NCBI GenBank assembly: GCA_050273025.1
Contig: CP158635.1
Location: 124,001 to 188,000 of the forward strand
Reading direction: 5' to 3'
DNA length: 64,000 nucleotides
From: Cenococcum geophilum
Lineage: Eukaryota
The translations under genes were made by a program, and so were the position numbers. Positions 5,407 to 44,402 of this stretch are shown one piece after another (the first letter of the stretch is position 1; the number at the start of each line of letters is the position of its first letter). Under the pieces are notes generated by a model. That model made no database searches. It was not told the DNA's origin and saw only the letters and a program-made list of their open reading frames with translations.

Positions 5407-8404
5407 AAGTCTACCTTGTAATAATATTAGTTTATATCGGCCTCTTTCTTCTCTTATATTTTTTTTATAATTACTTAGGTAGTCTCCTAGGCTCTATATA
5501 TTCTTTTAGCAAATATCTAGGCCTCTTTATAGCTAAGGCGTTTACGGGCTATTATAGGTCCTATAGGTCTATCCTAATTAAAGGATGTTTATAGCTTATA
5601 TCTATAGAGTAACTTAAATAGTAATATTCCTATACTATTATAAGGGAGTATAAGCTATATATAGTCTATTATAGGTAGTAGTTCTAACTAGTTATCCTAG
5701 TAGTAATTGATAAAGGGGCGAAGTCGCTAATTAAGATATTAGTTTATAATCTCGGTTTAGCTATTAGTCTAAGGGTAGAATATAGTAGAGAGCTTAATCT
5801 TAATCTAAAGGATATAGTAAAATTTGTTTTAGAAGTCTAATGTAAATTAGGGTCTATAGTTAGAGATAATTAACTTAGGAGCACTATAGATCTAGTAAAT
5901 GTTATTAACATATATATAGGCTATATCTTTTATAGTTATAGTCTTAAAGTAGGGGAGGGAAATAGCTTACTTACTTAGTTAGTTAACTACTATAAAGGCT
6001 ATATTATAGCTATATTTATCCTTTAAGAATAATTTAAAGTCTATTATAATATACTACTAAGGGCGTTTAGGAACTAGAAGTGGTTATAACTATCTAGGGG
6101 TTTAATCCCTAGGGGTATCTACCTATTTATAAGTATAATAATTTCTAATAAATTATTCTATATTGGATAGGAGTCCTTACTAGTAGTAGTAAGGCACTAG
6201 TAGTTAGTAGGTCTTATCTTAACTAGAGTACACTATAGAGACTTAATAGTAGGCTTTATAGATTAGCTCTATTTATATATTATTAATATCTAGAACTATA
6301 AGCCGTTCTTAGTATAAAAGTAGTCTATCTTCTATTTCTAAATTAGAGTTACCTTCTATAGCTTAATTATAGAGGGCTTTTAGGGATTTAGCTATATAGT
6401 TTGCAATTAAGATATAGTTAATTAGCCCTATTAGTTTATTTAGGATCTCTCCTTCTATAGGCGCTAGCTTATTCTATTTAAAGCTTAGTTCCTTAAAAAT
6501 ATATAGGTTAAGCTATTTAGAATAGAGGAGGGTATATATTTAGCACTAAGCCTTTAGCTTATCCTATAGTTCTATATCTTATTCTCTCTAGTTAAGGGTA
6601 TTAGCTTTAGAATTTTACCTACTAGAGTAGTATATAATTGTAAAGAAAAATTAGGAGAGTATTTTAGCCTATTTAGCCTATTAACTAATAACCTACTTTA
6701 TTATTATAAAATACTTAAGGGCTTTATAATTAGTATAGACTTTAATCTAAGAGTCTATAGTTCTAAGCTCTATATATTACTAGAATAACAATTATATAAT
6801 AGCTAGTATTTTCTTATTATAATAATAACTCTTTAATTAACGTCTAATATAGATCCTACTAGCCTATATAGACTACTCCGTTATAGGGGGAAAACTTATA
6901 ATTTATATAAAGAAAACCCTATAGTTAGGTTAGGGGAGGAAAAACCCTATAAGCCACCTTAGTAGGATAAAAAAACTCCAATTTGCTATATCCGTCCATA
7001 GTAGCGGCCCTATAGGCCTATAGCTACGTCCTATCCTCCTTAAATATTTAAACTTCTTAGAAACTACTACTTTCTTCTCTAGCTTATTAAAGCTAGGGTT
7101 TACTATATCCTAGCTAGGCCTTACTAATTAACTGCTATACTATTATTTCCTATATTTTAACTATCCCCTATATACTATTTCTTAAAGACCATTGCTATAT
7201 ACCCCTTCCTCCCCCCTACTAAAGCTTTTAAAGGCATAAGGGGGATTTATCTATAACTACTATTTGATACTAAAAGGCGAGCGGGATATATATATACTTT
7301 AAGTATCTTTTATACCTAGGCCCTAGTTACTAGACCCTCTCTAAAGGTACTACTCCGTTAAGAGAAGATAAGGAAAAACTATAGGGGGTTATAATCTAGG
7401 CTGCTAGATAGTATATTGCGGTAGTAAAATAGCAAGTAACTATATACTCTATAGGTAATTACCCTAGGGCAGGTAGTTATATAGTAAAGTTTAATATACC
7501 TAATTATCTAAGCCTCTACCCTAGTTTTCTAGTAGCTTTCCCTTATCTAGGCCTAAGGGCCTAGGGCTTTCTATAAGCAGTTAGCTACTACTACTACTTA
7601 TATAGGGAATTTTACTATTCTTTTAGGTATCTTATAATAGGTTACCTAAGTGCTAATCTACCCCCTAGCAGTCTATATAAAAGTCTTCTCCTAGAGTTAG
7701 TACGCTTTTATATAGCTTAGGAGCCTTCTATAGCCTCTAGTTTTACGCCTCTTTTTATTATTTCCGCTAGTATAGATATAAGCTGCTATTTATAGGGGTT
7801 ATAACTCCTATCTTATACGCCTACTAGCGTAATCCTATAAGGGTGTTATAGCTATATCCTATAATATAGAAGCCTTAGGTACCTTCTATAGTTAAGGCCT
7901 AAATAAAACCTCTTCCGCCTAAGTAACTCCTATTTACTCCTTAAGTATATCTTACTAGTAAGCCACCCTAGAGGTAAACAGTTCCGTCTATTAATATACT
8001 AATACGTATATCCGTTCTCTTAAGCTATATAGTAATCTCTTTAGTTAGGATATAATCCTACCTACCTACTAGGTACACTAAGGGTTAGAGCCTAGTTAAA
8101 GGGTAAGGTCCTTAAAGCTAGTAATAGCTACTACGTACTACGCCCTATAGGAGGCTAGTAGTAATATAGGTGCGTAATACCCTATATGCTTTTAGTTCCC
8201 GTTTTGTATTACCTATAAGGGTCTCCCTATAATAGGCTAACTATATCTTATAAAATAGGGTTATAGACTAGGTCCTACTAGGTAACCTACTCTACCCTAT
8301 TCTACTAACTAAGCTTATACCCCCCCCTTTTATAAGCTAGCCTATATCTCTAACTATTAAGTCCTTATCTAACTAGCCTATATTTCCCTTATAGCCTCCC
8401 CTAT

Positions 8405-15211: not shown

Positions 15212-15297
15212 CTATACTTAGCTATTAAGGGGAATAGGATTTTAGATAATATTTCTATTTATGGCGATATAAACACGTATAGTAGGGCTTTATAGGC
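15212..15297 (-). ncRNA. HDV/CPEB3-like self-cleaving ribozyme fold (RIP-damaged)
   Basis: Minus strand order: P1 gcctata, J1/2, P2 ctatac, P3 gtg, L3 tttatat, P3' cgc, P1' cataaat, ag, P4 (tatta/taata), J4/2 CTAA, P2' gtatag. Reverting C>T/G>A gives P1 GCCCAUG/CAUGGGU (G.U first pair) and GCG-UUCACGU-CGC. G1 is the first base inside the TSD. Confidence 0.78.
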
Positions 15298-18200: not shown

Positions 18201-19671
18201 CGGAGCTTTTCTTATACTTAGATCCTCTAATTCTTAAAGGTAGGGTCTATTTTATTAGATAGTAGTTAAGGGTTAGGGAGCTTAATAGACTTTAACTGCT
18301 TTATTATTATATCTATACTCTCTAGTATATTATATTTAGTTAAGTAAATAGGTTAGCTAAGGCTTTATAAAGGGGAGGCTAGGCTATTTTATAAGGTAGT
18401 AAGGCTTTCTAGGATCTCTTTTAAAGTCTCTTATATACTTTAGGCTTAAAGATAATTAACCTTCTAATTAGCTATAAGGGTATAAATCTGCTTATATATA
18501 TTTATAATATTATTATTATCTTTAATTTCTAATTCTAATTAGATCTTATATTCCTCTTAGGTAAAAATAGGTCTTTTAAATAAGCTTACTTTAGGTACTA
18601 TTATTAGCTTTCTAAGGTTTATTAAAATTATATAATTTAGGTTTAATTCTAGGGTATAAGTTAAGTATAGTCTATTTTATAAAAGTAGGATATTATTAAG
18701 GCCTTCCTAGACGTAGTAGTATAAGTTTTTTAGTATCTAAGTATAATATATTAATACGTTATTATAGATAAAGGTCTTCTTTTAGGGTAGGATATTATTA
18801 AGGCCTTCCTAGGTAATATAGGGAGAGCTTAGTATAATATAACGGGCTTATATAAATACTTCTAAACTAAAGCTTATAGATTACTACTATATAAGAATAC
18901 TAAACTAAGGAGAAAAAGACTATTAGAGACTAATAAGATATAAGGGATCACTAAGGCACTAATAGTAAGTAGGTTAATAGTAGTGCTAGTAAAATATAGT
19001 AGAATCTAGTAGGTTGCCTAAAAATATAGTAAATTACCTTAGAAATAGTAATATAGTAGGTAATATACTTTAGTACTATTATATAATCTTTATAGAGTAC
19101 TTATATATTAATATATTCTCCTAGCCTATTCCCTACCCTTATAGCTTATTTCTTTACCTATTAGTTCTTTAAGGTAACTCTAATATCTTTACTTTTAAGG
19201 TATTAGACTATAATAGTATTATAAACCTCTTTATAAATCTCTATAAGGACTTCTATTTCTAATTATCTACTAAGCCTATCTACTTTTTCTATATTTAGTT
19301 TTATTATAAATATATACCTAGTTATTATCTTAAGGGGGTATAATATATCCCGTCTTATATTACTATATAGCTAAAAAGATAAAGAGTATTTATAAACTTA
19401 TTATAAGCGTAGCGGGATCTATTAGAAACACAGGGTGACTCACTAATAACGACTACTCGAGTAGGGTTATAGTGATATTAGTTAATTCTTTTTAATAGGA
19501 ATAAGGAAAGGGGTAAGGAACTTAAAGTTCCTTACTACGCTAGGGCCACATTAACACGTGACGGCAATATGCTTTATGCGACGGCAACTTACCTCATTTC
19601 TAATACTGGCAACTCTTCTTTTTGTAGTTGCTATATATATATATATAAACAGACAGTATATAATAATATTA

Positions 19672-19757
19672 GGCCGTCGAAAACGGACTCTATACCTATA
19701 CGTAGTGACGGCTACGAACCTAGGTCTTCGAAGTTCAGACTTAGAGCCAACGCAGAG
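19672..19757 (+). ncRNA. HDV-like self-cleaving ribozyme fold
   Basis: P1 GGCCGTC (19672-78)/GACGGCT (19707-13) with G.U first pair. P2 ctctat (de-RIP ctctgc)/gcagag. P3 acc/agt (ggt). L3 tatacgt (tgcacgt) with P1.1 partner ac (gc). 8-bp P4 ctaggtct/agacttag. J4/2 CCAAC. Confidence 0.7.
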
Positions 19758-20670
19758 ACGTCGTATAGCGTGCGATAGGACCTAGTAGTCGTGGTTATAA
19801 GCGTTGTGGGCGGTGGTAAAAAATTTTCAGATGGTGAGATCTCGAAAACCACTACTGTGGCCCTCTACAATTCAGCTACGCTACTCTCCTATTAAGGCAC
19901 CTGTACGATCTAACGTGGATATACAGCATTCGATAGCATCCCCTGACCCCCAACAGAAAGCATTAATGACCTCTTACATCAATAAATAAGTGATCGCGAA
20001 TGAGTAAACGAACAAGCAAATATACGGCCCCTCCTAACCCCTAAGGCGATCGCCCGCGGAGTATACGGTCACTCGCCGTTGACAAATACCAAATACCCAG
20101 CAGCCTAGATTGTGACCCACGGTTTTCCTTATCTCCTTTCAACGGAGTAGTAACCCTTAGAAAGGGCCTAGCTGGGGCCTAGGCATAAAAGATACCCAAT
20201 ATAACATATCCTGCTGTTAGTATTACGGTAATTAGAACGGATGAATCCCCCTTACGCCTTCAATAGGCCCTAGGGGGGGGAGGCATAGCGTATATAGTAA
20301 TGGTTAAATAAGAGATAGTATATATAGGATAGCCAAGATATGGGAAACAATAGTAAGACAGCAATTAAGTAGTAAGGCCTAGCTAGGACGTAGTAAACCC
20401 TAGCTTAAATAAGCTAGAGAAAGAAGCAGTGGTTCCTAAGGAGTTTAAACATCCAAGGAGGACAGGACGTAGCTGTAGGCCCGTAGGGCCGCTGCTATGT
20501 GCGGATATGGCAAACGGGGTTTTTTATCCTACTAAGGTGGCTTATAGGGTTTTTCCTCCCCCCCAGCAGCAAGGGTTTTTTCCCGTCAATATTACTTTTC
20601 CCTTATATACGGAGTAGTCTACATAGGGCTAGATAGCATCTGTATCAGACGTTAATCAAAGAATTATTAT
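19672..20670 (+). mobile_element. SINE-like non-autonomous retroposon (~1.0 kb) with 5' HDV-like ribozyme, inserted in the Copia 3' UTR
   Basis: 15-16-bp TSD TATATAATAATATTA(G) at 19657-19671/2 and 20671-20685/6. Tail attattat. 3' portion homologous to ~6822-7475 (minus strand). Confidence 0.82.
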
Positions 20671-23600
20671 TATATAATAATATTAGATAATATGCAACAA
20701 AACTAGATAATATATAATAAAACTAAACGATATATAACAATGCGGTAGTTAGTAGAATTTAGTAAATAACGTAAAGATAAATAGGCCGCTAAGATGCTAG
20801 TAGTAAGCGAGCTAATGGCGATTTTCTATACCAGGCATGGAAAATCCTAATTGGTTAGTAGAAGTCTATACCGCTACCTAAATTAATTAGGCATAGCGCT
20901 CTTAGCAAGGATCTAACTAATTAGATAACTTTAACCGGCGGTTAAAGTTCTATAAAATCTTAACTTCTTTAAATTTCCCTTTTAACCTAACCTTTAACTT
21001 ATATATATAGAGTATTTATATTAATAAACGTCTCTAGTGCCTTGTTTGGGTTTGCCTTCGTCATTATATCTACTAGGTTATCTTGGCCATTAATCTATTA
21101 GATCTTAAAGAGTTCTTAATACTTATAGGACTGCTAAAGTGCCATAATATCGATTATAAGACGCTTCTCCTTTATAGTACTAAGCTTGACTAAATACTTA
21201 TAGAGGGAATATAAGTTGGTGTATACAATTATAGGGATAGCGGGAAGTTTAAGCCGGTCTATAATTATCTTAAGGGTAGTTCCAATTGCAATTACTATAT
21301 TAACTCCGCCGACCATTCTATATATCTCTAATGCTAAAATGCTTTAAGTAACGCGCTTACTCTTAGTTAAGCTCTAATAGATAAGGTTACTATAGATTAT
21401 AAAGTTATTCTCTCTAGTAGATTTATTTACGATAATAATTTTATATCCTAGCTAGGAGCTAAAATCTTTATTATTTATAAACGATCTATTAACGAATACG
21501 AAGAGCTTGGCGGTAGGAAGGTTAATAAGCACATAAAGTAGTCCCCTGTTGAGGTGGTTTATTTACTAAAAAAGACGCTTATTTAGGGCAAGAACATTAT
21601 CCTTAGTTAGTTTCTGGTATTAAGCGGTAATAGAGAGATTAAAGGAAGCCTTAAGTTAATAAATAGAAGCTATATAAGCTCCGCGAGCGCGTTACTCTAC
21701 GTATCCTTACTTTAGAGAATTAACGTTAATAACGTCGATCTTCTTGCCTTAACCCTTCTGGCATAGAGTAATAGAGCCCTTATTTAGGGAGAGGATATAT
21801 CTATTAAAGAGTAATAGTATTACTAAGTTAAGTCTTTCCTTTAGCTTTGCTATAAGGTTTACCTTTACTAGCTTATCTTCTTTAAGAGCTAAGAATTAGT
21901 TATCTCCTAAGATAATTATATTGTCCGTTTATATACTAACGATTCTAAATAGAGTTCCTGTAGTTATAATAAGGAAGTAGGGATTAAATATAGAAGTAGT
22001 TATTAAAAGCTTCTCCTTATAGTGCTTACTATAGGTAGCCTACTAATAAGTTCCTGCCTCTGCGATTCTATATAATGGCTTAAGTATAACTATAATCGTA
22101 TCCTCGGGATATTAGTGGCGAATTTGCTCTGGAAGGTATACTAGTATTAAGTGCTAAAGGCGCGTCTCTAATTAGGTATAGGCCTAAGTAATATCTTATA
22201 GGTAAACCGCCATCCTATTCTTCATTAAGGAGGGAGCTAGTGTAACAATGACTTGTTAACTAGCTCGTTAAATTATAGGGGATTGTGTAAGGATTACTTC
22301 CTTACCGTTATTGTTATAACCTTAAATAACTAGCCTTGACTTCTTAAATAGGGTATTAGTAGCTTTGCCTTTAATCTTATTAACTATTCTTAACTTAAAT
22401 ATATGGACTTTATTGAACTTAGTAGGGTTATATTTCTCGAATTTGAAGACTCCTCTTATAATAAGACTGTCGATCTCCTACTTATTAGATGCTTAGAAAG
22501 GAGCTCCTGGAGTTATAATACGGCCTTCCTTTTAGAGCTGTTTTATAAGTTTAAAGTCAGCCTTCTCTTTAGCTATTATAAAGGCCATTAATAGTTTATC
22601 TCCATTCTTAATAGCGGTGACGAATTGCTCTTTGAAATTAATAAGATATTGGCGATTTTATAATCCCTTTAGGCGACCTTTACCGTGTTATAGTTACGGT
22701 ACATCTACTATAATTATATTAGAATCGCCTTCGCCTTCTAAAGTACGTTAATTGTGGTTCTTCTTTGGGGTATCCTCTGGGGTATCCTATAAAGGCTTAG
22801 AGCTATTATCCCTGTAATAGGGCTTAACAATAGTTAAGCGGAATTAAGTAGGTCTATAGGGCATCTAAAGAGTGTAAGTTTAACTATTAATTATAATAAG
22901 TTTATATAGGCCTAACTATCCTCCCTTTTTACGCCATATGCGTACCTCTGATTAGAGTGGTAGATTAAGTGTAGTTAAGGTGTTTAGGCTATTTCTTATT
23001 CCTAGTACGTTGTTAACCTAGCGCGTGGCGTAGAGATATTATACCTCCTTTATTGCCTTGCGAATAGCCTTAGCTTATTATATAATAGAGGGAGATAGTA
23101 AAAAATTGTTAGTTATTTAAGGGTAGGCGCTAAAGACTAGTAACGTAGGTACGAGCCTATCTAGGCTAGCGGTATCGTTAATAGCCTTAATAGCTATCTA
23201 TAGGATAAGCTCTTTGCTAGCACCCTCTAGTTCCGAAAAAATGATCTTATATACGCGGCGTAATGGTATATAATATTATTCTACTTTTCTAATACTATTA
23301 TATACCTTAACGGGGACTTCCTTAACCTTAATTGTTATTACCTTTGCCTGTTATTAAAACTTCGTAAATAAGAAGTTCTTTTCTATATTGTAAACGATTT
23401 AATTAGGGGGTCCTAGGTAGATATTAATTTAGTATAATTAAAGAGTATCCTATACGTTCCTAGCTGATATATCTTTTAAAAAGTGTGCGGCTTAGAAGGA
23501 GGTTAAGAAGTTAATAACTTAGAGTACTAGCTTGCCGCTAAGATATATAATATCTATAATAATATAGAAGTTAAAGTTATAGTTATCTTTAAGAGTAAAC

Positions 23601-26600
23601 TTAAATCGGCCAGGGGACTTTTAGTTCATTTGGTAGTAGTGGCAGTACTTTATAAGATATTTAATTACCTTAACCTTGACTTTATGACCTACTCGCTAAA
23701 GGACCCTAAGTAATTGGTAAATAGATAGGTAGCTAAAATAATGGTATAGTTAACGTAACTCTAACTTGGTTAGGTGGCTTTAAACAACGCTCCTTTCTAG
23801 CTGTTAAAGGAGTAACTAAGAGTAACCCTACTTGCGTATAATGGGCACCCAATTATCTCCCTAGATAAGTATATTCTTAAGGTTGTTAAGCTTAATACCT
23901 AATTTATTTATATCTTGGATGCAGAATAAGAATGGGGTGTTTGTGGGGATAATGTGGAAAGTAATATATTCTAACGGGGTTTAGACCTTAATTATACTAA
24001 GAGAGATTATAGTACCCTTGCTAAAGCGAATTGTATATTGGCCTGCTGTTAATTAGTTAATTTAAATAGAGCTATTAAGCTGCTAAAGAGCTCGAACTTA
24101 AGGCTCTCTTGCTATAGATACTCCTGCGGCTTTAGTATCTGGTATAATACTATAGAAGATATTTGCTAAGTATCTATTGTTAAAGGAGAACGCGGAACTT
24201 TCCTTTAGCTTATTAAAGATATTTAACTTTATAATAGAATGGAGTGTAGATTAGTTATTAAAGATAGCGACGGTTTGTGTACTATTTACCTTACTATACT
24301 TAGTGAAGTATTAGTTAGGAGAGTAGTCCTTAATTTCCATATCTATAAGGAGCTATTTAGCCTCGTTAACCTTACCCTTAAGATCTTTTTTGCCTTTATA
24401 TTAAACTAGGAAGTTTTAGAAGTAGGCTATAATAACCTCTTAGTTTCCGACGTTTTGTATACTCTAGCGAAACCTATTATATGCCTCCTTTTATCTATTA
24501 AGAGGGTATCTAGTTAACTAGTAATTTAGCTTCTTATAAATATAGCACTTCTTCTAATAATTGCTCTAAAGTGAACCTCCACAAGGACCTCTATAATTGC
24601 CTTATAGTTAACGTTAATTGTACCCTTTACTATATCCCCTACCATGTTCACTATATGTTTGATTAGTCCAGTTATAATTATATTGGTTAGCCGGGTTGAT
24701 TAAGGTAGGTTAGAGTTAGGCGTTAAATTACTATACTTTTTAAGAGCGTAGAGCGGTGCTAATAGAGGATCTTAATTAAGTATATACTCCTTTGTAAGTA
24801 CTTATAGGGTTAAAGAGAGTAAGATTGTATTCTTTAATACCTTAGTATATGCTAATAACTTGATTATATAGGCTAAGGTCCTCTTAATATAATTCGGATA
24901 AACTACGCTAAATTGTCTAAAGTTAATTAAAGAGCTTTTAAAGACAATTAAGCCGAGAGATACCTGGGTTTATAGCAATAATTCTTAGAAAGGTAGTCTT
25001 TCTCCACTCTGATATATATTGCTGCTTATTCTTTTCTATTTTAAAGTGGCATCTTATCTTATATATTATTCGGTTAAAATTATATCCTTTTTCTGCTAAA
25101 TAATTATAATAGAAGGTACTGGCGCGGCCCTTAAGTATAACGAAATAGGTGTTATAATATTGGTTAGGTTTTAGTCTAACCTTTTAGTAATAGTTATAGA
25201 AGATACGCAGCTTTAAATTAAGGATGTTATATAGTTCCCCGCTAAACTTCTTCTCCTAGTCCGCATAGAGCTTCGTAAGCTCTATAAGCATTTTTAAGGT
25301 GCCTCCAAGTAATATTAGACTATATTAAAATTGCATTGGAGATTAAGGTGGGGATTGCTTTATAGGCTGCAGTAAAGATATAGGGCTTAGTAGAACATAG
25401 CGTAGTACCTAATCTTCCTATAGTAGAGTTTAAAGGTTATTAAATCGCGAAGCAAGGGGATCTTACGCTTGCTCTTAAGGGGTAGTAGTTAACGTTGCTA
25501 GTTAAATTAGTGGATCCTAGGGAGCTAGAGATAGAGGTAGAAGCGATAGATATAGAACGTAAGAACTTATGCCTGGAGTAATGGAATTAGAGCGCGTCTC
25601 TATTAGCGTATTATTTAGATTCTATTATAAGTTAAGCTTTCTCTTAGTGCGTAGTTAGTGCTTAACCTCTTATAAAGTCCATTCGTGCTCTTCTTTTGCG
25701 TTAATAACTTACTCCTAGATATTGTCTCTAATGGCACCCCTATCTATAGGGACAAATACTCTATTCTCCTGAAGGAAGTTACGGAAGTCTTATATAACGT
25801 CCTTCTTCGCGAGAGCCTATATTTCCTTTATCTATTTAATAAAGTCCTCCTTTATATAACACTATAGCTTAGTATTGTTATATTTGCTATCTATATAGTG
25901 TACTATATAGTATACTAAGAATCCGTTTAGGTCCTGTTTCTTAGCATTTATAAGGTTAATATCTATATCCCACGTCTCTAGGTTAATGCTTTTCTTATAC
26001 TTCTTTAGGTAGGTTGACGCCATAGTAGGTATAAAATTAACGGGGTGTCGTACATTGAAGGTAGGTAGGGTTTTTGGCTTTATAGAATCTCGTAGGTTTG
26101 CTGTCAAAAGGTAGGCAATTAAGATATTGTTAACGCGTTTTAGACATTAACTTTGGGACCGTAGGTTTAGTAATACTTCTAACCTAAAGTACTCGACTAA
26201 ATCTTTGTATGTGTAGTTATTTAACGCGTTTCGGACGTTAATTTTGGGACCGTAGGTTTAGTAACACTTCTGACCTAAAGTACTTGACCAAATCTTTGTA
26301 AATGTGGTTATTCTGCGTAATAGACGCAACTTAGTATCTCCTAGTACTTAGTAACACTTCTATTATTAGTTTTCCGCAAGTCTAAGGTAGTATAGTATCG
26401 CCAGGATCCATTCTATATAAGCGTATATAGCACCCCTATATAAGACTGTCTCTTCTATTTAAAAACCTAGCTACTCTATAGTTGACTGTGTATTTAACTA
26501 CTAATTAGTATTAGAAACATAGGGTGACTTACCAATAACAACTACTTAAGTAGGGTTATAGTAATATTGGTTAATTCTTTTTAATAGGAATAAGGAAAGG

Positions 26601-29600
26601 GGTAAGGAACTTAAGGTTCCTCACTACGCTAGGGCCACGTCAACACGTGACGGCAATATGCTTTATACGACGGCAACTTGCCTTATTCCCGACAGGATCT
26701 AATATATATACTTTTACAATTACCTCTCCCTCTACGTACTTATTCTTAAGTGTTTACTATAGGGGTTATAAGCTAAGAGTTATACTATATATTAGTATCT
26801 TTAGTAATAAAAGCTACTTAGAGTTTAAGCTAGATTAGACTTTACTAACACCTCTTATATACCTAACCCCTATAGGTATATATTAGACTATACTAGAGTA
26901 AAGTATATAACTATTAGGGGTTAAACCCTTAACCTATTATTAATAGGCCCTATACCTAGCCCTAGTAAGTTTATAATTATAATTATAATATATCCTACCT
27001 TATATTACTATATAGCTAAAAAGATAAAAAGTACTTATAAACTTATTATAAGTGTAGTAGGATCTAATATATATATACTCTTATAAGGGGGTAGGTTCCC
27101 TATACTATAAAAGTATAGCTATAATAGCCTAGGTATAGTTTACTAGTAAAAGGGAGTTTTATTTATTTTTAATTTTATTTAGCTATTAAAGGTTTTAATT
27201 AAAGGTTTACTAAAAAGATACCTAAGGTTTACTAGACTAGTAAAGCTATTTTACTAGCTATATTAGTTTATTATAGCTAACTATTACTTCCCTCTAATTT
27301 TAGATACTAGATATATCTAATAGGCTTTATATTTTATTAGATACTTTCTTAATAGAGGTATTTCTACTTTATAGTATAGTATTTACCTATCTTTATTATA
27401 AAGGGCTATTACTAAGTATAGTTTTAGTAGTTATATATAAGTATAAACTACTATTATTTAATATATATCTCCCCTATAATATATATATCTTAGAGGGATT
27501 CTCTAGGTATTTTTTAGGGTTCTTTTAGTTAGTTTTAATCTTTTTAGGCTAGGTATAGTAAGAGCTCTATATAGTATTTAAATTATATAGTATATATATA
27601 TATCTATAATATAGTAGTAAAATAGGTAAAAGTAGGTAAAAGAAAATAAGTATTATAGTAGTATAATAAATATAAGTAGGGGGTTAGTTAAGTATTAGTA
27701 TATATATATATACTTCTATATTTAGAATAATAATTTAATATATAAATATATAAAGTAGGAATTATATTTAGTTATAGATATTATATATAGTAGTATTTAT
27801 TTAATTAAGTTAGTTAATAAAATAGTAAGGTAAAGTAAATAAAGAGATTTATATAGAAGGTTTAATAGGGGTATTTTATAAAAGAGTAATAGAGTAGTAT
27901 TATAGGGGTATATAAGTATAATAATAAAATTAGTAATATTAGTATAGTTATTTAATATAATAATAGTTTAGTTAATAGATATTAAAAAGAAGTTATAATA
28001 TTAATTAAGGTATATATATATAGTATCTAGTATCTAGTATCTAGTATCTATAATTATATATTATAGTAGTATATATATAAGGTTATATTATAAAATAGGA
28101 TTAGGTTTAAAGAATAAATATTATAAGTATTAGTAAATATATTATAAATAGAGATATATATTAGTTTAGTTAGGATTAGTATAGATAATAGATAATAATA
28201 GATAGTAGTAGTATTATATAAATTCTAAATATAGATTAGAAAATAAATTAAGTAAAAGGGTATATAGTATATTAGAGATATTAGAGATATTAGAGATATT
28301 TAAATAGATTATAAAAAAGGAATAAAAGGGAATAAATATTTTAAAGATATAGGTATTATATAGGTATTTTCTTTATATATCTAGAGGGTTATAAGTAGAG
28401 GATTTTTAGGAAGGCTTTTAGAAAAAGCCCTTTATATTATATATAGTAAGGGTTATAATCTAGTAGGTAGGTAGTATGGATATATAGTATAAGGAGTATT
28501 TTTTAGAAGGCTTTCTAATATTAATAGGCAAACTGTTTTAACTTAAAACGGTTTAAAAAAGAACTGTGGGATAAAGACTAGGGGTTGGAACGTTTTGAAA
28601 ATCCAATTAAATTGTTTTAACTAAGAATTAATATAAACTATTAGTTTAAAGGTCTAAAATACCACAACCTACTACGCCCGATTTATTGCTGCTATTGCTA
28701 TTAGGATGTGACCGCTATGTTATATATTTATAAGTAGGTTAGAGTAAGGTTATATTATAGTTATAAGGTTTGCTAAGGCAGGCTAATATAAGGCAGAGAG
28801 CTACCCCGCCCTTATCCTTTTAACGTACTAAGCCTTAATTTATAGATATAAAGAAGAGTATATATAATTTTTAGAAAGGTTTTTAGAAAATATATATATT
28901 TATTATATATATCTACAACCTAATACTACTAGAATCCCACTAACTTAAGAAATAAGTAAGGAAGAAATATCCTTAATAACTGGTATAAGATAACGGTCGA
29001 ATAGCTAGAGCACGTTGGAAAGATCTATTTTATATAGTCGATTATCGCTTATATCTTCAATAGGAAGATAAGTATAAGGTAGCTGCTAACCTATTAATAT
29101 ATTTTATATAAAGTCCTCTATTTGTTAACTAAACTTAATAGCGGCTAGGTAAAAGCGCTTAATAAGCTTAAGGAATATATTAAATACGCCTAATAAAAGG
29201 CGCTCTATAAAAGAATAAGGCATTTTAGATATAGGAATAAGAGTAAGAATACTAGGACTAAGTGTCTTCTATATATAATACTATTAATAGCCCTTTATAA
29301 AAGACTTTATAAAGTAGCGCTATTGCTTATTAGATAGAGTAGAGGAGTTAGCTAGTAATAAAGAAGGTATATTTATAGATAGGTAGAGTGCCTTAAAGAG
29401 CTACTACTTAATTAAAGAGGCGTTACTAATACCTTTACCCTATATACTTAATGGCGTATAATCTAGAAGTACTTCTATATTTTAATAACAATTATAGAGG
29501 TATATAAGATAATAGTAATAAAGAATATCTTAAAGTATTCTAGTTGCTTTAATACTGGTAATGTTAAAGAAAGCCTTTTAAAAGCCGAATAGCGCGGCGT

Positions 29601-31553
29601 TTATATTTTAGCTACTAGGGGTAAAAGTAACTAAGGACTATAAAGACAATTAGGGAGGATATAAGGATAATTAGGGAGTAGTTTGCCGGTTTAAATCTAT
29701 AGTGCTGTTTTTTCGCTAGTATATAAGTATAGCCTTAACGTTCTTAATAGCTTTACTATTACTAATAGCGCTTACCTTATAGACTAAGGTGGACGCCTCT
29801 TATTTACCTATTCCTATATAGTTAGGCTATTTAGCTAGCTAGCCAAGTTTCCTCCCATTCTCCTGTATATATATATCCTATATATTATTCTCTTTCTTAG
29901 TTATAAAGATATTAAAAAGCTTATTTTCTAACCTCTTACACCTTTCCCTTTCTTTATGCCTATTTATATTACTAACCGTTATAATATACTCTAGCTCTAG
30001 TATAGCTATATAGTTCTAAGTATGCTTAATAGGCGGTAGAGATAGAGAAGTATTAGATATACGCCTTTTACCCCTATAATAGGTACTTTTATTACTAGTA
30101 TCCCGTATACTATCTAGACTATTTTTTATAATATTAGCAGTAGACCTAAACTCTACTAGGCTACTATAGTTGCTATTATCCTCGCTTTGTAGTTAAGGGT
30201 CTAGATTAGCATTATCTATATTAACTGGTTTAGGTTTAAGTTATAGAAGCACTTTAGGCCTATAGGACTAGCGGATTTATTATAATATATCTTCTAATAA
30301 CTTTATAATAAAGAATAATAGATTAGGGTTAGTATTATTACGTACCTATACTATAGGGGTATTAGTACTAATAAATAAGGCGGGAAGTAAGCGTAGAAAG
30401 AAGGTTTATATTTTTTAAGGCTTTACGCCTAAGGCTAGAATTAATATAACTATAGTAGTAAGGTAGCTAAAACTAAAATAGGTAGTAGGAAAAACGCGTA
30501 AAGCCGGATTTTGGGTAATACTTTAGCTATATAATTTATATTCCCTATAGAAATGGAAATAAGATAATAGGTAAAGATATATAATTATCTAACGTTACGT
30601 TACCTATAGTAGCCTATAGCGTACTTATATTTCCTTATAGCCTTACGCCTAATAATAGCTCTTTAATAATTAAGTTATATTACTAGTTTATATAACTTCT
30701 TCTCTCGCTACTTCCTAAATATACCTATCTTTTATATCTAGTAAAGTCTATAACTTAATTAGGTGCTTTCCGTCGCTAACCTATAAGGCTATTATAAGTT
30801 TATCCTATCCACTTATAAGCTACTAGACTATATCTACCTAGTCCCTTAGCTTAAAAAGTAGCTAATCGTCTTTATAATCCTAAACTTATAGCCTACTATC
30901 TATTCCTCCTAATATAAGGTAGTCTTTGGCCTAAACTAGCCCCTATATAGCCTAATTATAAGCCTCTAGAGTATAGATAAGTCTTCCATTTTACTAGTCC
31001 TAGGTTTAAATAGTTCTATCTACTCTAGAAGAAACTAAGTTTTTATAAAAATTTATAAGTTGCGTAGTAACTTTAGTATAACCTTTATAGGTTATAAGAT
31101 ATATCCTTTATTAGGATTTTTTTTGGGTATATTATTGTAAGCGAAAATCGGGGTCTGCAAAACCTGCATAAGTCGCAATTTTGGCAATTTGCGGCGATTT
31201 GTAGCGATTTACTATAAATATATAGGCTACTTGTGCAAATTGCCGCAAATTACTAAACCCTAATTTTTGGCTATAATAAAAATACTATAAAAGCTCTATA
31301 TAAAGCTTTGTATAAAGCTCTATATAAAGCTCTATATAAAGCTTTATACAAAGCTCTATATAAAGCTCTATATAATATTCTATATAATACTCTATATAAA
31401 GCTCTATATAAAGCTTTATATAAGGCTCTACGGGCTCTATATAAAGCTCTATATATTAAGGCTCTATATAAGGCTCTATATAAAGCTTTATATAAGGCTC
31501 TATGGGCTTTATAAGGCTCTATATAAAGCTCTATATATAGAGGCTCTATATAA

Positions 31554-34500
31554 TGTAACGAAACCTTATAGCAGGTACTACGATAGGCTCGTTATTAGGC
31601 TAGGTGTATAGGTAAAGCAAGTTAAAGTCAATAATGTAATAATAACTGGTAGAGTGGTTGCCTAATAGATTAACTCTAATTATATTCTAAGAATTACTAT
31701 AAGGAAGGAACTATCTAGGTAGGGATTAAGGGTCCTTAAATACACGACTGTACTCCTATAAAATCCTTCTTATATATAATGTACGTCTTATATATAAGGT
31801 ATATAAGTTTCTCCTGTTCCTCTTATTTAATACGTAGCATATTATATAACCTTAGCTACTATTCCTCGTTATATAGTTCTACCGGCTCCATTCTAGACCA
31901 TGCCTAAATTAACTAACTAGCTTCTTCCGACTTTTCTCTAAGTAGTTATAGCATCGTACTTAAAGCGTTCGTAATACCATCTCCCTCCTCTCTATTTTTA
32001 TTCTTAAAGATTTCTAATATTTTTAAGTTGTTTACTAGAGGTATAATATCTATCTAATTAATTTGGTTAATATTATTGCTTATTATACCTAAAGCAATTT
32101 CTTCTTTACACGCCTAGCGTCGTGCTCGCACTATTGCTGCGATATTGTCTCTTAGTGATATTATACCGTCTCTATATTCTCGCTGTTTAAAAGAGGGGTC
32201 GATTTATATTACGTTAGTAAACCTATCTTTGCAATAACCGTCCTCTTGCTTAGAGTGCACTAAAGCAAATATTTGTTTATCCTATAACGTTTACTCTACT
32301 TCTAATGCTAAATATACGCGACCTATTACTCTTAATAGTTGTTTAGTTCCTTAATTAATTTATTTTAGGGTCTTATATTTAATCTACTGCTATATAGCTA
32401 GATAGTAAACTGTCTTAAGCTCTTACTAAATTAAAACGTTTTTAGGACGCGGAATAGAAGGCCCTAAATGCTCGTATCGCGGCATCTGCTTATTTGCTCC
32501 GTCTTAAGAAGGTTTATAAGAAGGTCCGTTTTAAGGAGTAAAAACTTGTAGAATAGGGTTTGTAGGAACTTAGTAATAAAAGAACGGATTCTCCTCTAAT
32601 AGAGAAGGAAACAGATTTAAGTACTTCGGCAACTGCTCTTCTTGGGTCCCCTTTAGGTAACTTATTCTTTAGCAATTTTTTTTTATTAATGCTTCCTGAC
32701 CTAATCTCTTCCGGTACTCCTATAGTATTCTTTAAATTCTTTAGTAGCTCCTAGGTAGTCTTAGTGTAGCCTATCCACTTAACTTTATACTATATTTTAT
32801 TGTTAATATCCTTATAGTTAATGATCTTTAAAACTTACTATTTGTTTTCTTTTTGTCCTCTATATATATCTGCCTTATAGCCTAGTAGCTTAATATTCCC
32901 ATATACTGGCTCTAGCATTGCGATATACTATATAGGGTAGATCTTTATTTTAGCTAGTAGGTTTAACTTAAACGTAATTGGTGAAATCCTTTACTTAATT
33001 TTAAAAGGTCCTAGTTTAACGTAGTCTAACTTCTTACTTAGTTATCGACTCTTAAAATTTTTGTGTAGTAGCTACACTTTATCTCCCTCCTTAAGATCTG
33101 GTCCCTTAGATCTCTTAGTATTATAATACTTTTTTATTCTTTATTGTACCGTCTTTACTATTTCTATAAGGTTTTTATAAAGATTTATTAGTGTCTCCAT
33201 TCTTTACTTAGCTGTGCTACTTATCTTTTTTACTTAATGTAGCGATAATAATGTCCTTGGCTCGTACCCGTAATTCGCCTTAAATAGTAATATACCCTTT
33301 CCTTCTTAAGGTATTATATTATATGTAAACTATATAACTAGTAATAATAATACCTAATTGTTCTGTGCGTAATTAATATAGTGCCTTAGATACTGTTCTA
33401 GTGTCTAATTTAGTTTTTCCGTTTAACCGTCTGTCTACGGATAATATGTGGTAGAAGTTGCTGCTCTAACTCCTTACTCCGCTAAGAATACCTTCTAGAA
33501 TACTACTATAAATCTTAGATCTCTATCTAATATAATTTTACTTAGTACTCTATATCTTGCAAATACTTCTTTAATATAGATTCTAGCGACAGCTTCTACT
33601 AATATCTTTTCCGTATATACTATAAAGTATCCCCACTTTATAAGCTTGTCTACTATTACTAAGATTGCGTTATAATCTTATCCGGTAATAGGGTCTTTTA
33701 ACTTTAGCAACTTAATAATAAAGTCCTATAATATAACCTCCCATAGTCTCTCTAGTATTTTAATAGGTTGTAGCCCTCTATATAGCTTATGCCTTATTAG
33801 TTTATTCCTTTAGTAATCTAGATATTTTTTTATAACTTTTCGCGCTAAGCCCTAGATTCCATCAATAATATACTCCTCCTAGAGTCTTAACACTAAGCCC
33901 GTGGCTTTATTATGTCCTTAAGTTATCCCCTTATAAAAGTCTTCTATAAATTGCTCTGCTATGCTTTTTAGGATATACATTACTTCTTAATTCTTATATA
34001 TATCCATCTATGGATCTTCTAGTTATACTTTTAGAATTCTTTATACCTAAAAGCTTTCTAGTGACTTATAAACTCTCTCTAGTTCCTCTTAAGTTGCTAT
34101 AATTTTTAGATAATTATCCCTGATTAATCCGTTTATATCCTTTCGCAGTAAAGCCCCTAATAGCTTTTTATCGTTCTATAGTTTAGCTTTCTAACTTAGA
34201 GCATCTACTCGCGTATTGTCTCTACCCTTAATGTACTAAATCTTAAAATAGTATTCTGTAAGCATCTCTGCCCATTTAACTTATCTTTAGTTAAGTTCCT
34301 TTATTATTAAGAATCCTATTAGGTTCTTATAATCCATCTTAACTATAAATAGTTTCTTTATACCTTATAAGAATGCTCTCTATTTCTTTAATGCTATAAC
34401 TATACCTAATAACTCCTTATTGTAGCTGTTATAGTTTAACTCTAGTAGTATTATCTTCCAACTATAATATGCCACTAAATGCTATCTATCTTAATGTTTC

Positions 34501-37500: not shown

Positions 37501-39478
37501 CTTTATTAAGTGCCGAAGTAGTTTACTGTCCTACTTTTCTTACGTCTCATAAAGCGATAGATATTATATTTAGTGGGGTCTTAATCCTAACTAATATTCC
37601 CTATTCTATAGTGGAATTATCCTCTACCTTTAGTATAACATTTTAGAGGTCTGTATGCTCCTAGTAAGCTGCTCTTATTACCTTATTATCATGAAATATT
37701 TCGCCTTTATTAAACTTATTGTCCTTAATATCCGATCTGCGAACTGGTTTATTAGTTCCTCTATACTCTATAGATTTTGGCTCCTATAGCCAATAGCTTG
37801 CGCCGTACTTAGCGTCCTTATAAATTCGGTATGCGTTGTTATAACAAAACGTAAAACTCCTAATTGAACATTCCTTTGTTCCTTATAGTATACTATTATC
37901 CCTCTATATATATATATCTTCTACTAGTTAGGTTCCCTTTATTATATAATAACTCTAACTATCTTTATAATCCCTCGCGAAATAACCCTATTTCCCGTAA
38001 TTTATATAAGCTCCGTTTTTAAACCATTAACTTTGCTATAAAGTCCGCCTAAACGTCTTCTGCTACTAAGATCCCTAGTTTAGCCTCTGCTCCTTAGTCC
38101 TATAATTACTAGATCCTTAACCTCTAGGTTTTTATAGTTTCCTACTCCATCTCTTATAGGCTTCTTTAGTACCACTTAGGTCTATTAGCTCTGCGCTATA
38201 CCATAGTTTTTAATTTAGCTTTAGTTATTGCGTGCTCTGCGCCTTATACGACTATAAAACTCTATCCTAACCCTTCTTAGTCTATTCCCTTTAGTAAATC
38301 CAGTTATTAATCTTAATTACTTAATCTATTAGTTCCCTTAGGGTGTCCGTATCTTCCATTAGGATAATTACGTCCTAGACTTTAGCCTTAAGTCCTTATT
38401 TATACTATACCATAAGCGCCCTATTATTCCACTCTACTTACATTACTAGCGTTTAAAACTGCGTTGTATATTTAATTGCTAAGGTTCGTTATATAATGTT
38501 TTAGAGTTTTCTTTCCACTATAGTTGTTAATTCCAGGTCTCTAAATATTTACACAAGTTGTTCCGTAAACCCTTCCTAGCTTAAGAATATAAATCGCATA
38601 TCTTAATTAGTGGTTATTATTCCGTTTACCTATATCTCCATAAGGTAAGGCTTAAACTATTTAAGTGCTCTTCCTAACAAGAATAGGCCTGCGTAGGCTA
38701 TTTAATTCATAGGTATTGGTAACTTTGCCCCTTCTTGTGTGACTTTAAAGTGCATTTACGTAAGGAATCCTTTAAGCTTTAATCTTTCTTCTAAGTACCT
38801 TTTAATTAATAGTAGCTTGATCCTTGCCACACCTATCCTATTAACCCTTTCTTCTATTACTGCATTATTAGCTATTAACTAGTTAACTATCTCTTATAAC
38901 TGTCCGACCGTTATAGGTTGCTATAAGTTAGTATCTACCATATTGGTGTCACCTAACCTTAAAGTAGTTGCTGCCGTTAATAGCGTTATAGTAGCTACTT
39001 TTAGTGGCATGTTGTTTAACTTTCTATACTTATTACCGTAACTAGGTAGTAATTGTATAACGGAACCTTGTAGCAGGTACTACGATAGGCTCATTATTAG
39101 GCTAGGTATATAGGTAAAGCAAGTTAAAGTTAACAATGTAATAATAACTGGTGAAGTAGTTGCCTAATAGATTAACTCTAATTGTATTCTAAGAATTACT
39201 ATAAGGAAGGAACTATCTAGGTAGGGACTAAGGGTCCTTAAATACACGACCATACTCCTATAAAATCCTTCTTATACGTAATGTACGTCTTATATATAAG
39301 GTACGTAAGTTCCTCCCGTTCCTCTCGTTTAATATATAGCACATTATATAACCTCGGCTACTATTCCTCGTCACATAGTTCTACCGGCTCCATTCTGGAC
39401 CGTGCCTAAATTAACCAACTAGCTTCTTCCGACTCTTCTCTAAGTAGTCGTAGCATTATACTTAAAGCGTTTATAATA
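31554..39478 (-). mobile_element. Full-length Gypsy family D, copy 1 (gag, long linker, protease, RT, RNaseH, integrase, chromodomain)
   Basis: 423-bp LTRs at 31554-31976 and 39056-39478, TSD TATAA, PPT at ~31977-31992. Protease DSGA ~35935, RT VYLDDIIIY ~34965-34990, chromodomain KVKWIGY...TWEP ~32745-32790. Confidence 0.95.
32085..32754 (+). pseudogene. Antisense accessory ORF in the Gypsy D 3' region: Cys6 zinc-finger-like motif plus coiled coil, probable intron ~32312-32397
   Basis: De-RIP reading MPKAISS..RRARTVAAILSLGDIMPSPCSRCSKEG.IC.TL...QPSSCSECTKANI..SCDV, then a helical segment ARIAASA.LLRL.KV.KKVR.KEQKLVEQGLQEL. Confidence 0.6.
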
Positions 39479-39811
39479 TATAAGGCTCTATATAAAGCTC
39501 TATATAAAGCTCTATATAAAGCTCTATACGAAGCTCTATATAAAGCTCTATATAAAGCTCTATACAAAGTTCTATATAAAGCTCTATATAAAGCTCTATA
39601 TAAAGCTCTACGTATAGAGGCTTTATATAAGGCTTTACGCGAAGCTTTGCGTATAGAGGCTCTACGCGAAGCTCTGTATTAGGTCCCCGCTATATTCCCA
39701 ATAACCTCTATACATACCTTTACTAAGTATACCCCCTATATATACCTAGGTAGCCACCTTATTTTTTACCCTTCTTTATATCCTCCCTACCTAGGAAGAC
39801 ACCAAAATAAT

Positions 39812-40075
39812 AGCTAGTAGATAACTATTACTAGAGCTAAACGACCGTTATAGAAGCTAGACAACTATTGCTAGAGCTAGACAACCGTCACTAGTGCTAA
39901 ATAACTGTCGTTAAAGCTAAACAACCGTCGCCAGAGCTAGATAACTATCACTAGAGCTAAACAACCGTCGTTAGAGCTAGACAACTATTGCCATTACTAG
40001 ATAACCATCAGAGCTAGATAACCGTCGCTAGAGCTATATAACCGCTGCTAAAGCTATATAATAACCGTTTAAACG
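39812..40075. repeat. ~21-bp tandem repeat (gagctagacaaccgtcgcta-like, ~12 units)
   Basis: Periodicity directly visible. Confidence 0.85.
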
Positions 40076-40130
40076 ACTAGCTAGCAAATATAAACGATTT
40101 AATTAATTAATCGAATTAAGGTAACATAAA

Positions 40131-40340
40131 CAGGTAGGCATAGATAGGTAGGTATAGATAGACAAATAGATAAATAGATAGATAAACAGATAGATAGATA
40201 GATAGGTAGATAGATAGGTAGGTAAGTAAATAGGTAAGTAGGTAGGTAGGTAGATAGGTAGGTAGGTAGGTAGGCAGGTAGGCAAGTAGGTAGGCAGGTA
40301 GGTAGGTAGGTAGGTAGGTAGATAGGTAGGTAGGTAGATA
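40131..40340. repeat. Tetranucleotide microsatellite (TAGA/TAGG/CAGG)n
   Basis: Directly visible. Confidence 0.9.
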
Positions 40341-40770: not shown

Positions 40771-42382
40771 TGTACTAGGGTTAAATATTTAGGTATTCTG
40801 GAGTTTAAATAAAGTTTAATTAGTACTATATACGGCAGTATAGCTAGTTGGGGTTTTAAAAGGTAGGGTTTTAGAATTAAAATTAATTATAGATTCTGTG
40901 CTCTTTTAATTATCCTTCTTTACCCCTTATTTTTTAATCTATTTAACAATGCGTTTAATCTAAGGTGTAGATAAGATCTTTTTATCTACTTCCTTTTGGA
41001 TATTTAGGTTTAGTTTCTATCCTTAAGGGCGATTATACTTAACAATATAGTAGTAGTTATTAAATTAATATATAAGGCTGTATACGCATTCCTTATACCA
41101 TTTTAAATTAGAATTAGAATTAGAATTAGAATTAGAATTGTTTTAAAGGGTTATAAAGGTAGAGTTATTAGTAGTAGAGGTAGAGGATGCTTACTATATA
41201 TGGTAGTGCTCCTTAAATTCCTTAATAAGATTGATAATAGATAGGACGTCTTCGTCCTTCTATTTTTTTTTTAATAAGGTCTACTTCTAGTGCTCCTATA
41301 AAACTAGAAGAGATAGGTTTAATTACTTAAACGAAATTATAGTGTGGCCTAAATCTCTATATATCCGGTAGCTCTAATTACTCCGTAAGCTTATAGACGT
41401 TCCGCTAGCTATTTAACTATTTATTAATGCTTTACTTTTTATTATAGGCTCTTAAAGCCGTGTATTAATTAAAGACATTATACTTTTAACTAAGGAGGTA
41501 GGGGCAAGTGCAGTCTTTAATGCTTAAAGCCGTTCGTGCACCGTATTAAGGCCGTTAATAAGTAAAATGTAAGCTATTAATATAGTACGAATGATATAGT
41601 TGCTAATATTGTTTATAGCTTATTTTTACTTCTTATATACGCGTAGATTATCCTTATATTTGGCGTAGAGCTAGTTATAGGTAGTAAGCTTAATTTGGTC
41701 TAGTTAAGCTATTAATATAGTATTAGGAAGTACGTCTACTAATATAGGTCGATGCGGTAGTTCTAGCTTTAGAAGCTTATCTTTTGTATATAGGTCGATG
41801 TATTACTATACCTCGTTGGTTTTGGCTATGTCTTAGATAATAAAGAACCATTAAGTCTAATCGGATGGCTAGTTGAGGATGAGGTTGACTTTTGATTCGT
41901 TCATAGTCGTTATTTTTAGAATTTGTGGGGTTAGGTAGGGTTTAATTGGTGGCTTGGCGAAAACCTTATTTTAACGTTCCGAACTCTTGATTTGATTTGT
42001 CAGTTCGTTTGTCGGTCGGGTACGGTTGTCGGTCGAGGTCGATCGTCCGTTTGTTTGGTAGGTGAAGAAGTTTAAGACACTTGCAAAGGTGATAGAAGTA
42101 GTGACTTCTTAAATGAGGTAGTAGCTTGATTACTTAGCAGGTAGTGTAATCCGGGCTTATAACTGTAAGCTTTGCAGTGTAGGAGAATTGAGTGAACGAC
42201 TTAATTCTAAATCTATGGAAATCGAGTGATATAAATACATAAAATAGGTGGCAAAAGGCTGATGACGACGATGTACCATTGCAGCTGAAACGATGTATAA
42301 TTGCAGCTGAATGATGTACAATTGTAGCTGAAAACAAGGGTGGTGAGTCATAAGGTAATGCGAGCCTCGGTAGTCGGTTACA
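40771..42382 (-). mobile_element. Truncated Copia element: 5' LTR 42164-42382, PBS-like motif, gag from ATG 41904 to the protease motif
   Basis: Minus strand TG...CA segment followed by GTTATAAGCCCGG, similar to the Copia PBS GGTTATGAGCCC. De-RIP MNESKVNLILNQPSDWTQWFFIIQD.AKTNEVWQYIDP (Copia gag N-terminus) and WIFDPGTD protease-like motif at ~40770-40795. No partner LTR in the window. Confidence 0.75.
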
Positions 42383-42793
42383 AATGCTAACGCCACTCAT
42401 TGCTACTCAGGTGGGGACTGGAGCAGCGCTCAACAATGGGAAGTGTGGAAAGAAGCCACGAAATTGCAAAGTAGAATTTCATTCCATCAAGGCCGGACAA
42501 GACGAAATCATGCACAGGCTGCGAACCTCCAATCCCTCATCGCGGCCGCACGTGTTGCGGACGCACCGCCTTACAGCGCTATTCTCCTCGAGCTCGCACG
42601 CATACTGCAACTCAATACGCAGAATGACTGTGATACTGTCAATCGAGCATTAGCCGTTTTGCGCCGGGCACTGGAGTGTAGTTTGTATATCGCTGAGAAG
42701 TTATTATGCGCCCCCACTCGTTATCCAAACGCCTCATCGTGTAGGGCTGCCGAGGGGCAAGCACCTAAGCTAAGCTGCAGAGTTCCATAACAC

Positions 42794-43744: not shown

Positions 43745-44402
43745 GTTTGGTGTCTAGGGAAGATGAGGAGGATTGTGGTGTTTTCAGTCTTCCCTTGGTG
43801 GGGAATATGAGGATGAAAGTGAAGTGATTTGAGTATAAAGCGGAGTGAAGTGAGGCGGAAGTGAAGGGATGCGGCGCCCGCAGCTGTGTTTGCTTGGCAC
43901 AGCCCTGTGATATATAATTGTGTATGGGCGCACAGACGCGCGATCAATCCGTGTTAGTGGCGAACGCCCTCTGCAGAACCAGCGTGGAAAGGCAGTTTGT
44001 GTCTTCAAAGGAGAAGATACCGTTTCTAGGATGTGATGTTGATGTCGAAGTCAAAGTGCGGCTGAGGAGGGAGGTATTGACGAGCTGTGCTCCCAATAGA
44101 GAGTTTTAGCCCGCAAACACAGGAAACTATCTCTGCGCGACTGATGCCCAGGGACGACCAGTACCAACAGATCACGCTGAATTGTCGCATCCATTGGCTG
44201 AAAGCTGGGCAGCAAACCTTTTGTTCATAATACTCAGTGCGTCCCCCAAATCTCTCATCTAGGTGCTCGCTCGCTTGTCTGAACTTTCAGCCATCGGCAG
44301 GATTACTTGTCGATATGCGCTTCCTGTGCACCTCTCTCGCCACTGCATCAAAACGCACATAAGTCCACGCAGGGGTATCAGAATTGACTCCTTTTGCACG
44401 CA
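43745..44402. promoter_or_regulatory. Putative bidirectional promoter region (658 bp)
   Basis: Lies between two divergent start codons. TATA-like tatata at ~43910 and a pyrimidine-rich leader on the minus strand upstream of the 316-aa ATG. Confidence 0.5.

Follow-up and report, generated by a model that had tools for sequence, protein, structure and literature searches.

The R2/R1 hybrid SIDEs of Drosophila combine an HDV-like 5′ ribozyme with the 3′ end of another non-LTR element, which supplies the enzyme (PMC3414825). On the available text of that source, they resemble the retroposon family described here (family A) in their non-autonomy, in not being Pol III elements, in the position of the ribozyme at the exact 5′ end and in their target-site duplications. 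They are specific to a 28S rDNA site, whereas family A is fungal and dispersed in hundreds of copies, has a ribozyme that is predicted, and has no autonomous ribozyme donor among the LINEs sampled. The trypanosomatid elements NARTc, RIME and SIDER, with Pr77 (L1TcRz), are also short, non-coding and dispersed; in the accessible parts of their descriptions an HDV-like ribozyme sets position +1 and its P1.1 varies among elements (PMC3185411, PMC4035085). NARTc-type elements are described there as sharing the ribozyme with their own LINE, whereas the LINE that shares its tail with family A has none. The MINE/WEIRD chimeras of Magnaporthe join a fixed non-coding head to truncated LINE or SINE 3′ parts within one target duplication, an arrangement that matches a second family in our DNA (family B); family A, in contrast, has its own fixed LINE-like tail, and the available text mentions no ribozyme in WEIRD (PMC2104539).

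HDV-like RNAs of the RF02682 family (HDV-F-prausnitzii) and of phages have in common with family A a P3 of ACC/GGU and an L3 of the form U-N-U-A-C-G-U. RF02682 also shares the inner U-A pair of P1.1 and has a J4/2 of G-C-Y-A-A with an optional fifth base, while the G-C-C-A-A-C of family A resembles the G-C-Y-A-A-C of phage HDV-like RNAs. Family A differs from RF02682 in its outer P1.1 pair (G-C rather than C-G), in its genomic role and in its score: the model aligns to the intact copy L047 at 1485-1569 with 14.7 bits (E 1.4), below the gathering cut-off of 44. The HDV ribozymes of C. briggsae and Ackermannviridae, which have been crystallised and cleave fast, have a U-A pair in P1.1 with a C·U or U·U as the second pair, according to the accessible text of PMC13635239, whereas in family A the second pair is a Watson-Crick G-C with a purine in L3. 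Since active members have U-A with C·U or U·U (PMC13635239), or a P1.1 of a single pair as described for L1TcRz (PMC3185411), a CC/GG P1.1 is not obligatory for the class.

Fungal variants described by Li and Breaker in 2017 have three marks in the available text: C pairs with G at the cut site, P4 contains a loop E, and P2 and P3 are separated by an extra base (PMC5640933). Family A has the fungal HDV-class fold in common with them and differs in all three marks, with a G1·U, no extra P2-P3 base and no AGUA/GAA motif. Webb in 2009 and Ruminski in 2011 reportedly described a few fungal HDV-like RNAs near reverse transcriptase genes. In the open-access literature we found no report of a fungal ribozyme-headed SINE-like family, and our literature search returned no paper on a 'theta ribozyme' with a P1.1.

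The window, a 64,000-nt stretch of Cenococcum geophilum DNA, holds a RIP-mutated copy of family A, a ~1.0-kb non-coding retroposon, at 19672-20670 on the plus strand. Very probably, its first 86 nt (19672-19757) represent an HDV-like self-cleaving ribozyme damaged by RIP, with which a non-autonomous retroposon mobilised by a LINE begins. A 15-bp target-site duplication at 19657-19671 (+) directly abuts the first base, G1, and recurs at 20671-20685 (+); the repeat at 19657/20671 is 16 nt if G1 is counted, the match at G1 being coincidental. The copy ends in a LINE-like 3′ end with a short (TTA)n tail at 20604-20670 (+), ~76-82% identical to the end of LINE L116.

The insert sits just inside one LTR of a minus-strand LTR retrotransposon (19420-26690; LTR pair 7089 nt apart), which is itself nested in a broken copy of a LINE, LINE-X (27567 to 19084). 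We take this host element to be copia-like from motifs in its minus-strand translation; Pfam returned no match on that translation with stops read as X. The window is repeat-rich and has a strong RIP signature (TpA/ApT 1.4-2.1 outside 42-46 kb), a pattern that points to an ascomycete, and its only un-RIPped, GC-normal stretch, 42001-47000, probably contains host genes. Tandem arrays of 12-nt, 20-nt and 4-nt units lie beside an LTR pair at 31237-31560 and 39417-40340, and account for the spurious Rfam miRNA matches in the window. Rfam gave no HDV match on the window.

The predicted fold is a nested double pseudoknot in HDV order, with a 7-bp P1, P2, a 3-bp P3, P1.1 and P4, all on the plus strand. 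P1 pairs GGCCGTC (19672-19678; G19672 is G1, and the predicted cut lies 5′ of it) with GACGGCT (19707-19713), and its 7 bp include a G1·U wobble. A 9-nt J1/2 (19679-19687) leads to the 5′ strand of P2 (19688-19693), followed by P3 with L3 (19694-19706), which in the family read ACC/GGU around a 7-nt loop, UGUACGU (19697-19703). The 3′ strand of P1.1, AC, occupies 19714-19715. J1.1/4 (GAAC) with P4 and L4 spans 19716-19744, the 8-bp P4 being 19720-27 with 19737-44, and J4/2, AGCCAAC (19745-19751), precedes the 3′ strand of P2 (19752-19757). Directly 3′ of P2, less-mutated copies have a 7-bp hairpin at 19760-19776 (+).

Compared with three close copies, the window copy shows nearly exclusively G>A and C>T changes. 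RIP has changed 19692 and 19693, leaving one broken pair and one wobble in P2, as well as 19704 in P3 and 19698 in L3, where A replaces the G that pairs with C19715. Three pairs are thus broken by RIP, with A·C mismatches in P2, P3 and P1.1, and the window copy is probably inactive as a ribozyme now. On its own it gives no strict descriptor match; 3 mismatches have to be allowed, a tolerance at which 19 of 300 shuffles also match. A looser, RIP-tolerant descriptor was set aside as too permissive, with 26 matches in the window.

The genome searched (G000; 178 Mb in 7 contigs) contains hundreds of copies of family A. With the first 129 nt as query, 634 candidates came up, and the 40 scored were all 91-100% identical from base 1 or 2. 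Across 59 distinct copies the upstream sequences are unrelated and identity starts exactly at G1; the target-site duplication, 11-18 bp long in this family, abuts G1 in 52 of them, lies 1-2 nt off in 3 and was not found in 4. Position 1 is G in 53 of these copies and A in 6; at the element's 5′ end, G1 pairs with a pyrimidine at the foot of P1. The 3′ tail has 592 matches, and among 30 of these loci that were read, 23 hold a complete copy starting at G1, 4 a truncated one, 2 an interrupted one and 1 a chimera, while none is a LINE. This sample also brought diverged subfamilies to light. The longest ATG frame in L047 has 58 codons. Family A is thus non-coding and dispersed, with target-site duplications and simple-repeat tails, as expected of a non-autonomous non-LTR retroposon. 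Two copies have unusual layouts: a head-to-tail dimer (L161, contig C3) with units 1025 nt apart, the upstream unit being without its first three bases, and a locus (L027) with just the first ~128 nt of the family, behind which lies an unrelated repeat that seems to be coding.

In copies with fewer mutations, P1, P2, P3, P4 and P1.1 are all completely paired. The bases altered in the window copy are intact in most of the 59 copies (G19692 in 55, C19693 in 53, G19704 in 54 and G19698 in 43). L047 matches the strict descriptor at 1-85, as do none of 1000 shuffles, with a descriptor that was composed after the fold had been seen. All core features tested are intact in 41 of 79 genomic copies and in 88 of 96 metagenomic copies, a metagenomic set that was selected on an intact core. 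HDV-like L3 loops are described as having U at position 1, C-G at positions 5-6 and a U·G reverse wobble (PMC6326823, available text); U19697 and G19702 correspond to the reverse-wobble positions, and both the U at position 1 and this G are present in 78 of 79 genomic copies.

An earlier note, made from the window alone, had placed an HDV-like double pseudoknot at the head of a 1-kb retroposon, and the analysis supports this. P1 (GGCCGTC/GACGGCT) and the 8-bp P4 pair without correction, as it had stated, and its J4/2 of CCAAC lies within the AGCCAAC read at 19745-51. It had counted pseudoknot-incompatible bases in less-mutated copies as evidence against the fold, and those copies pair fully. 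Its proposal that P2, P3 and P1.1 pair after TpA reversion holds for P2 and P3, as seen in other copies, and fails for the bases it assigned to P1.1. There it had supposed an L3 of UGCACGU paired with GC; exact and RIP-tolerant patterns of that kind have 0 matches in the genome, compared with 176 exact matches for the UGUACGU form. Two TpA steps had been over-corrected there.

P1.1 of family A consists instead of G19698-C19715 and U19699-A19714, both Watson-Crick. With the P1.1 positions left degenerate, the genome gave 271 matches, and all 100 of those listed read UGUACGU with AC, as do all 80 metagenomic loci examined among 120 found. The U in L3 is present in 79 of 79 genomic copies and the A in the P1.1 strand in 78 of 79; both occur in 96 of 96 metagenomic copies, and a C or G at these two positions appears in one degenerate genomic copy only. 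We infer the pairing from position and homology, there being no covariation at P1.1 within family A.

The RF02682 consensus, UCUaCGU with AG, equals the family A core with the outer P1.1 pair reversed, while the C-G/C-G of the viral consensus is replaced in family A by G-C/U-A. The earlier note was right that this P1.1 is not CC/GG and overstated its oddity, since U-A occurs in the RF02682 consensus and in two crystallised fast ribozymes; only the flipped outer G-C pair is uncommon, and the corrected P1.1 as a whole is mildly unusual. Among viral sequences, 0 of 6 matches to the flipped-core pattern fold, compared with 43 of 78 for the canonical pattern, which points to the flipped outer pair being uncommon. 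By the same comparison of sequences, L3 seems rarely to have a purine as its second base.

The catalytic cytosine is likely to be C19747, which would act as the general acid. The RF02682 alignment places it on the conserved C of GCUAA, and it is kept in 79 of 79 genomic and 95 of 96 metagenomic copies. Its neighbour C19748 is T in 12 of 79 copies, a difference that is not decisive alone as this base sits in a RIP target. The sequence after C19747, C-A-A plus one extra C, fits a catalytic C followed by N-R-A, and 11 of 43 folded phage HDV-like RNAs share the 5-nt J4/2 spacing before P2.

When only RIP-blind variation (transversions and gaps) is counted across 16 copies from diverged subfamilies, 6 of 48 columns of the core vary, compared with 581 of 1145 downstream, and of 1097 equal windows no more than 6 match the core in conservation. 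The catalytic core and J4/2 have 0 of 13 variable columns and P4 has 16 of 27. Subfamily A2, 78% identical to A1, has P1 pair 5 swapped from G-C to C-G, a U·C mismatch at P1 pair 3 and a P4 rebuilt with a UUCG loop; in other copies P4 is shorter and still paired. In 18 hand-picked rows (2 of them partial), 98.2% of 440 cells are paired, compared with 29-45% in slid controls. Two-sided pair changes number 4, with 1 in P1 and 3 in P4, some of the latter possibly twin RIP hits, and these 18 rows contain no compensatory change in P2, P3 or P1.1 within family A. The covariation across genomic copies that the earlier note proposed to look for is thin, consisting of the one P1 swap and the P4 changes.

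Folding of intact copies, which is pseudoknot-free and leaves the pseudoknot itself unscored, gives a rival structure of -28.4 kcal/mol compared with -21.4 for P1+P3+P4. In this rival, bases 3-6 and 12-15 form a 5′ hairpin and the P1.1 strand pairs with the 3′ side of L3; three intact copies have it as their predicted minimum; the region involved corresponds to window positions 19674-19719. The pairing between L3 and the P1.1 strand is possible because that strand is AC rather than GG. Folding z-scores of -0.4 to -1.3 are unremarkable, a measure that is uninformative for a pseudoknot.

A second HDV-like fold in the window, at 15212-15297 on the minus strand, has a canonical CC/GG P1.1 and is heavily RIP-mutated; we assume that it is the 'first ribozyme' of the earlier note. 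The view expressed there, of one architecture kept with different stem sequences, stands in that the stems of family A are unlike those of the 15297 fold; the two folds belong to two element families, so the comparison shows no covariation within a family. An intact copy of family B scores 29.5 bits on RF02682 (E 5e-4). Family B is a 1.8-kb non-coding module with this ribozyme at its head and a fixed 3′ boundary. Behind the boundary comes a piece, truncated to varying extents, of one of three LINE families, of family A or of B itself, and one duplication encloses the whole (L073-L092, L163, L194, L195/L197). The window copy runs from 15297 to 6822 (-), is split by LTR insertions and joins B to A(444-1015), the 3′ 570 nt of A, the chimera being enclosed in one 15-bp duplication. 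The piece at 6796-7405 was considered as the 3′ UTR of a parent LINE; that reading was rejected, since family B is followed there by a fused, truncated copy of A.

Immediately behind the fixed boundary of family B, nearly all copies have G or the A that RIP makes of it, and 4 copies have GCC. GCC is also the start of the B ribozyme, which a tandem or circular source RNA, or template-switch microhomology, could explain. A similar 7-bp hairpin with a 3-nt loop follows both ribozymes (19760-19776 for A; 7473-7520 of L086 for B), a hint that they share either their origin or a downstream signal. An RF02682 search of the genome, in which 61 of 7941 candidates were scored and which has no meaning for copy number, gave one unrelated canonical HDV-like RNA, at L128:1500-1575 (-) on contig C7. 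It has C at +1 and a CC/GG P1.1, lies in un-RIPped DNA and may be of the Li and Breaker type.

The last ~70 nt of family A are ~80% like the end of LINE L116, which carries endonuclease and reverse transcriptase domains, with patchy likeness over ~300 nt; a LINE partner closer than L116 may exist. LINE-X, with 368 start matches, has a uniform start without a ribozyme, so a fixed 5′ end alone proves little. Its full-length copies (L129-L158, L116, L159) have GGAGCTC as a fixed start. A short A-rich addition often precedes it, measuring 15 and ~35 nt in two copies of known duplication, whereas the duplication of family A abuts G1. Family A sequence lies upstream of 1 of 30 sampled LINE-X starts, at the L037 locus, and none of 20 LINE loci has a family A head; in these 20 loci and 30 starts, no SIDE in the strict sense, with its 5′ end taken from a full-length LINE, was found. 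L037 was considered as a ribozyme-headed LINE and rejected: here a LINE with a duplication of its own has landed inside an A copy, the remainder of which follows it. The features of a classical SINE head are likewise absent: 5 family A loci gave no tRNA, L047 lacks a B box, and the family A head has no 5S or 7SL match.

The element is present in 22 of 23 listed runs. Strand and ends are not readable from the contigs of runs X1, X4 and X18 that hold it; X23 is the only raw stranded RNA-seq run and comes from a related strain or species, most reads being 90-95% alike. In X23, 13,010 of 9.29 million reads (0.14%) fall on copy L030, overwhelmingly sense, and none in its flanks, giving abundant sense RNA restricted to the element. 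Molecule ends lie at +10 (315) and +11 (239; 554 together) rather than at +1. RNA-seq libraries of this kind usually lose terminal bases, and these ends are compatible with a discrete 5′ end near G1, where cleavage and initiation would look alike. The RNA has many RIP-reverted letters, with none at L3 or P1.1 in the strongest 40 rows listed (158 weaker rows exist besides), and among the joints listed none links the 3′ end to G1, as a circular RNA would.

The family A head has a real HDV-like fold as a family trait, and was probably once active as a ribozyme. A source copy, having neither a tRNA head nor a B box, would be transcribed by read-through or from an upstream promoter. The first 86 nt would then fold into the double pseudoknot, with the G-C and U-A pairs of P1.1 and C19747 as general acid, and cleave the RNA 5′ of G1. 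Recognition of the LINE-like 3′ end by the reverse transcriptase of a LINE would lead to insertion of the RNA by target-primed reverse transcription. This model builds on the fixed G1 start, unrelated flanks, duplications, repeat tails, pairable core, LINE-like tail and sense expression; from these we infer cleavage and the identity of the partner LINE.

It is unlikely that the fold is of ribozyme descent and its cutting no longer needed, with G1 as the start of transcription from an internal promoter and the first 86 nt kept as a promoter or stabilising structure, in the dual manner of Pr77 or as the rival hairpin. Pr77 of L1Tc is described as promoter and ribozyme at once (PMC3185411, available text), LINE-X starts uniformly without a ribozyme, and folding of three intact copies puts the nested rival lowest in energy. 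Yet conservation falls on the core and J4/2 (0/13 variable) and leaves P4 free (16/27), and the swap at P1 pair 5 favours P1 rather than the rival fold. L030 has no upstream read-through reads, which fits an internal start and is also predicted by fast cleavage. An internally deleted LINE, that is, a plain SIDE whose autonomous parent carries the same 5′ ribozyme, is a decidedly improbable source; R2 SIDEs and NARTc are described, in the sources available, as originating that way, and in copy L037 the ribozyme sequence leads on into ORF1 of a LINE. The nested insertion at that locus and the 1/30 LINE-X starts and 0/20 LINE loci, all from the LINE sample only, argue against such a parent. Two further places in the genome, checked for a LINE with a ribozyme head, proved to hold a family B head fused to truncated LINE-X.

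Two further explanations can be given next to no weight. An ancestral L3 of UGCACGU with GC, exactly as the earlier note had it, is a RIP-consistent reversion if the window copy is taken alone, but it conflicts with 0 genomic matches and with the U and A fixed in 79/79 (L3), 78/79 (P1.1) and 96/96 metagenomic copies. Equally hard to credit is chance pairing in RIP-degraded repeat DNA. The 26 loose-scan matches and the 19/300 shuffles that match at the window copy's tolerance would suit it, whereas intact copies match strictly (0/1000 shuffles) and always from the first base of the element, with a selectively conserved core.

The principle of a ribozyme-headed retroposon is already known, and the window copy is decayed. 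The 5′ chemistry of family A can nevertheless be tested directly, because its RNA is abundant (0.14% of reads in one run). We offer as a tentative speculation, doubtful as it stands, that fungi possess a SINE-like class in which the Pol III head has been replaced by a captured HDV-like ribozyme, that family A is a MINE/WEIRD-type chimera, of the kind family B still makes, turned self-standing and highly expressed, and that the rival hairpin pairing of the P1.1 strand with L3, which the flipped P1.1 allows, is a built-in switch that tunes cleavage. The family would provide a naturally occurring HDV-like core in which position 2 of L3 is a purine, of a kind missed by searches that fix C-G in P1.1. 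If it cleaves, ribozyme-headed non-autonomous retroposons, so far described from flies and trypanosomes, would extend to fungi, and the head in this case would not come from the partner LINE.
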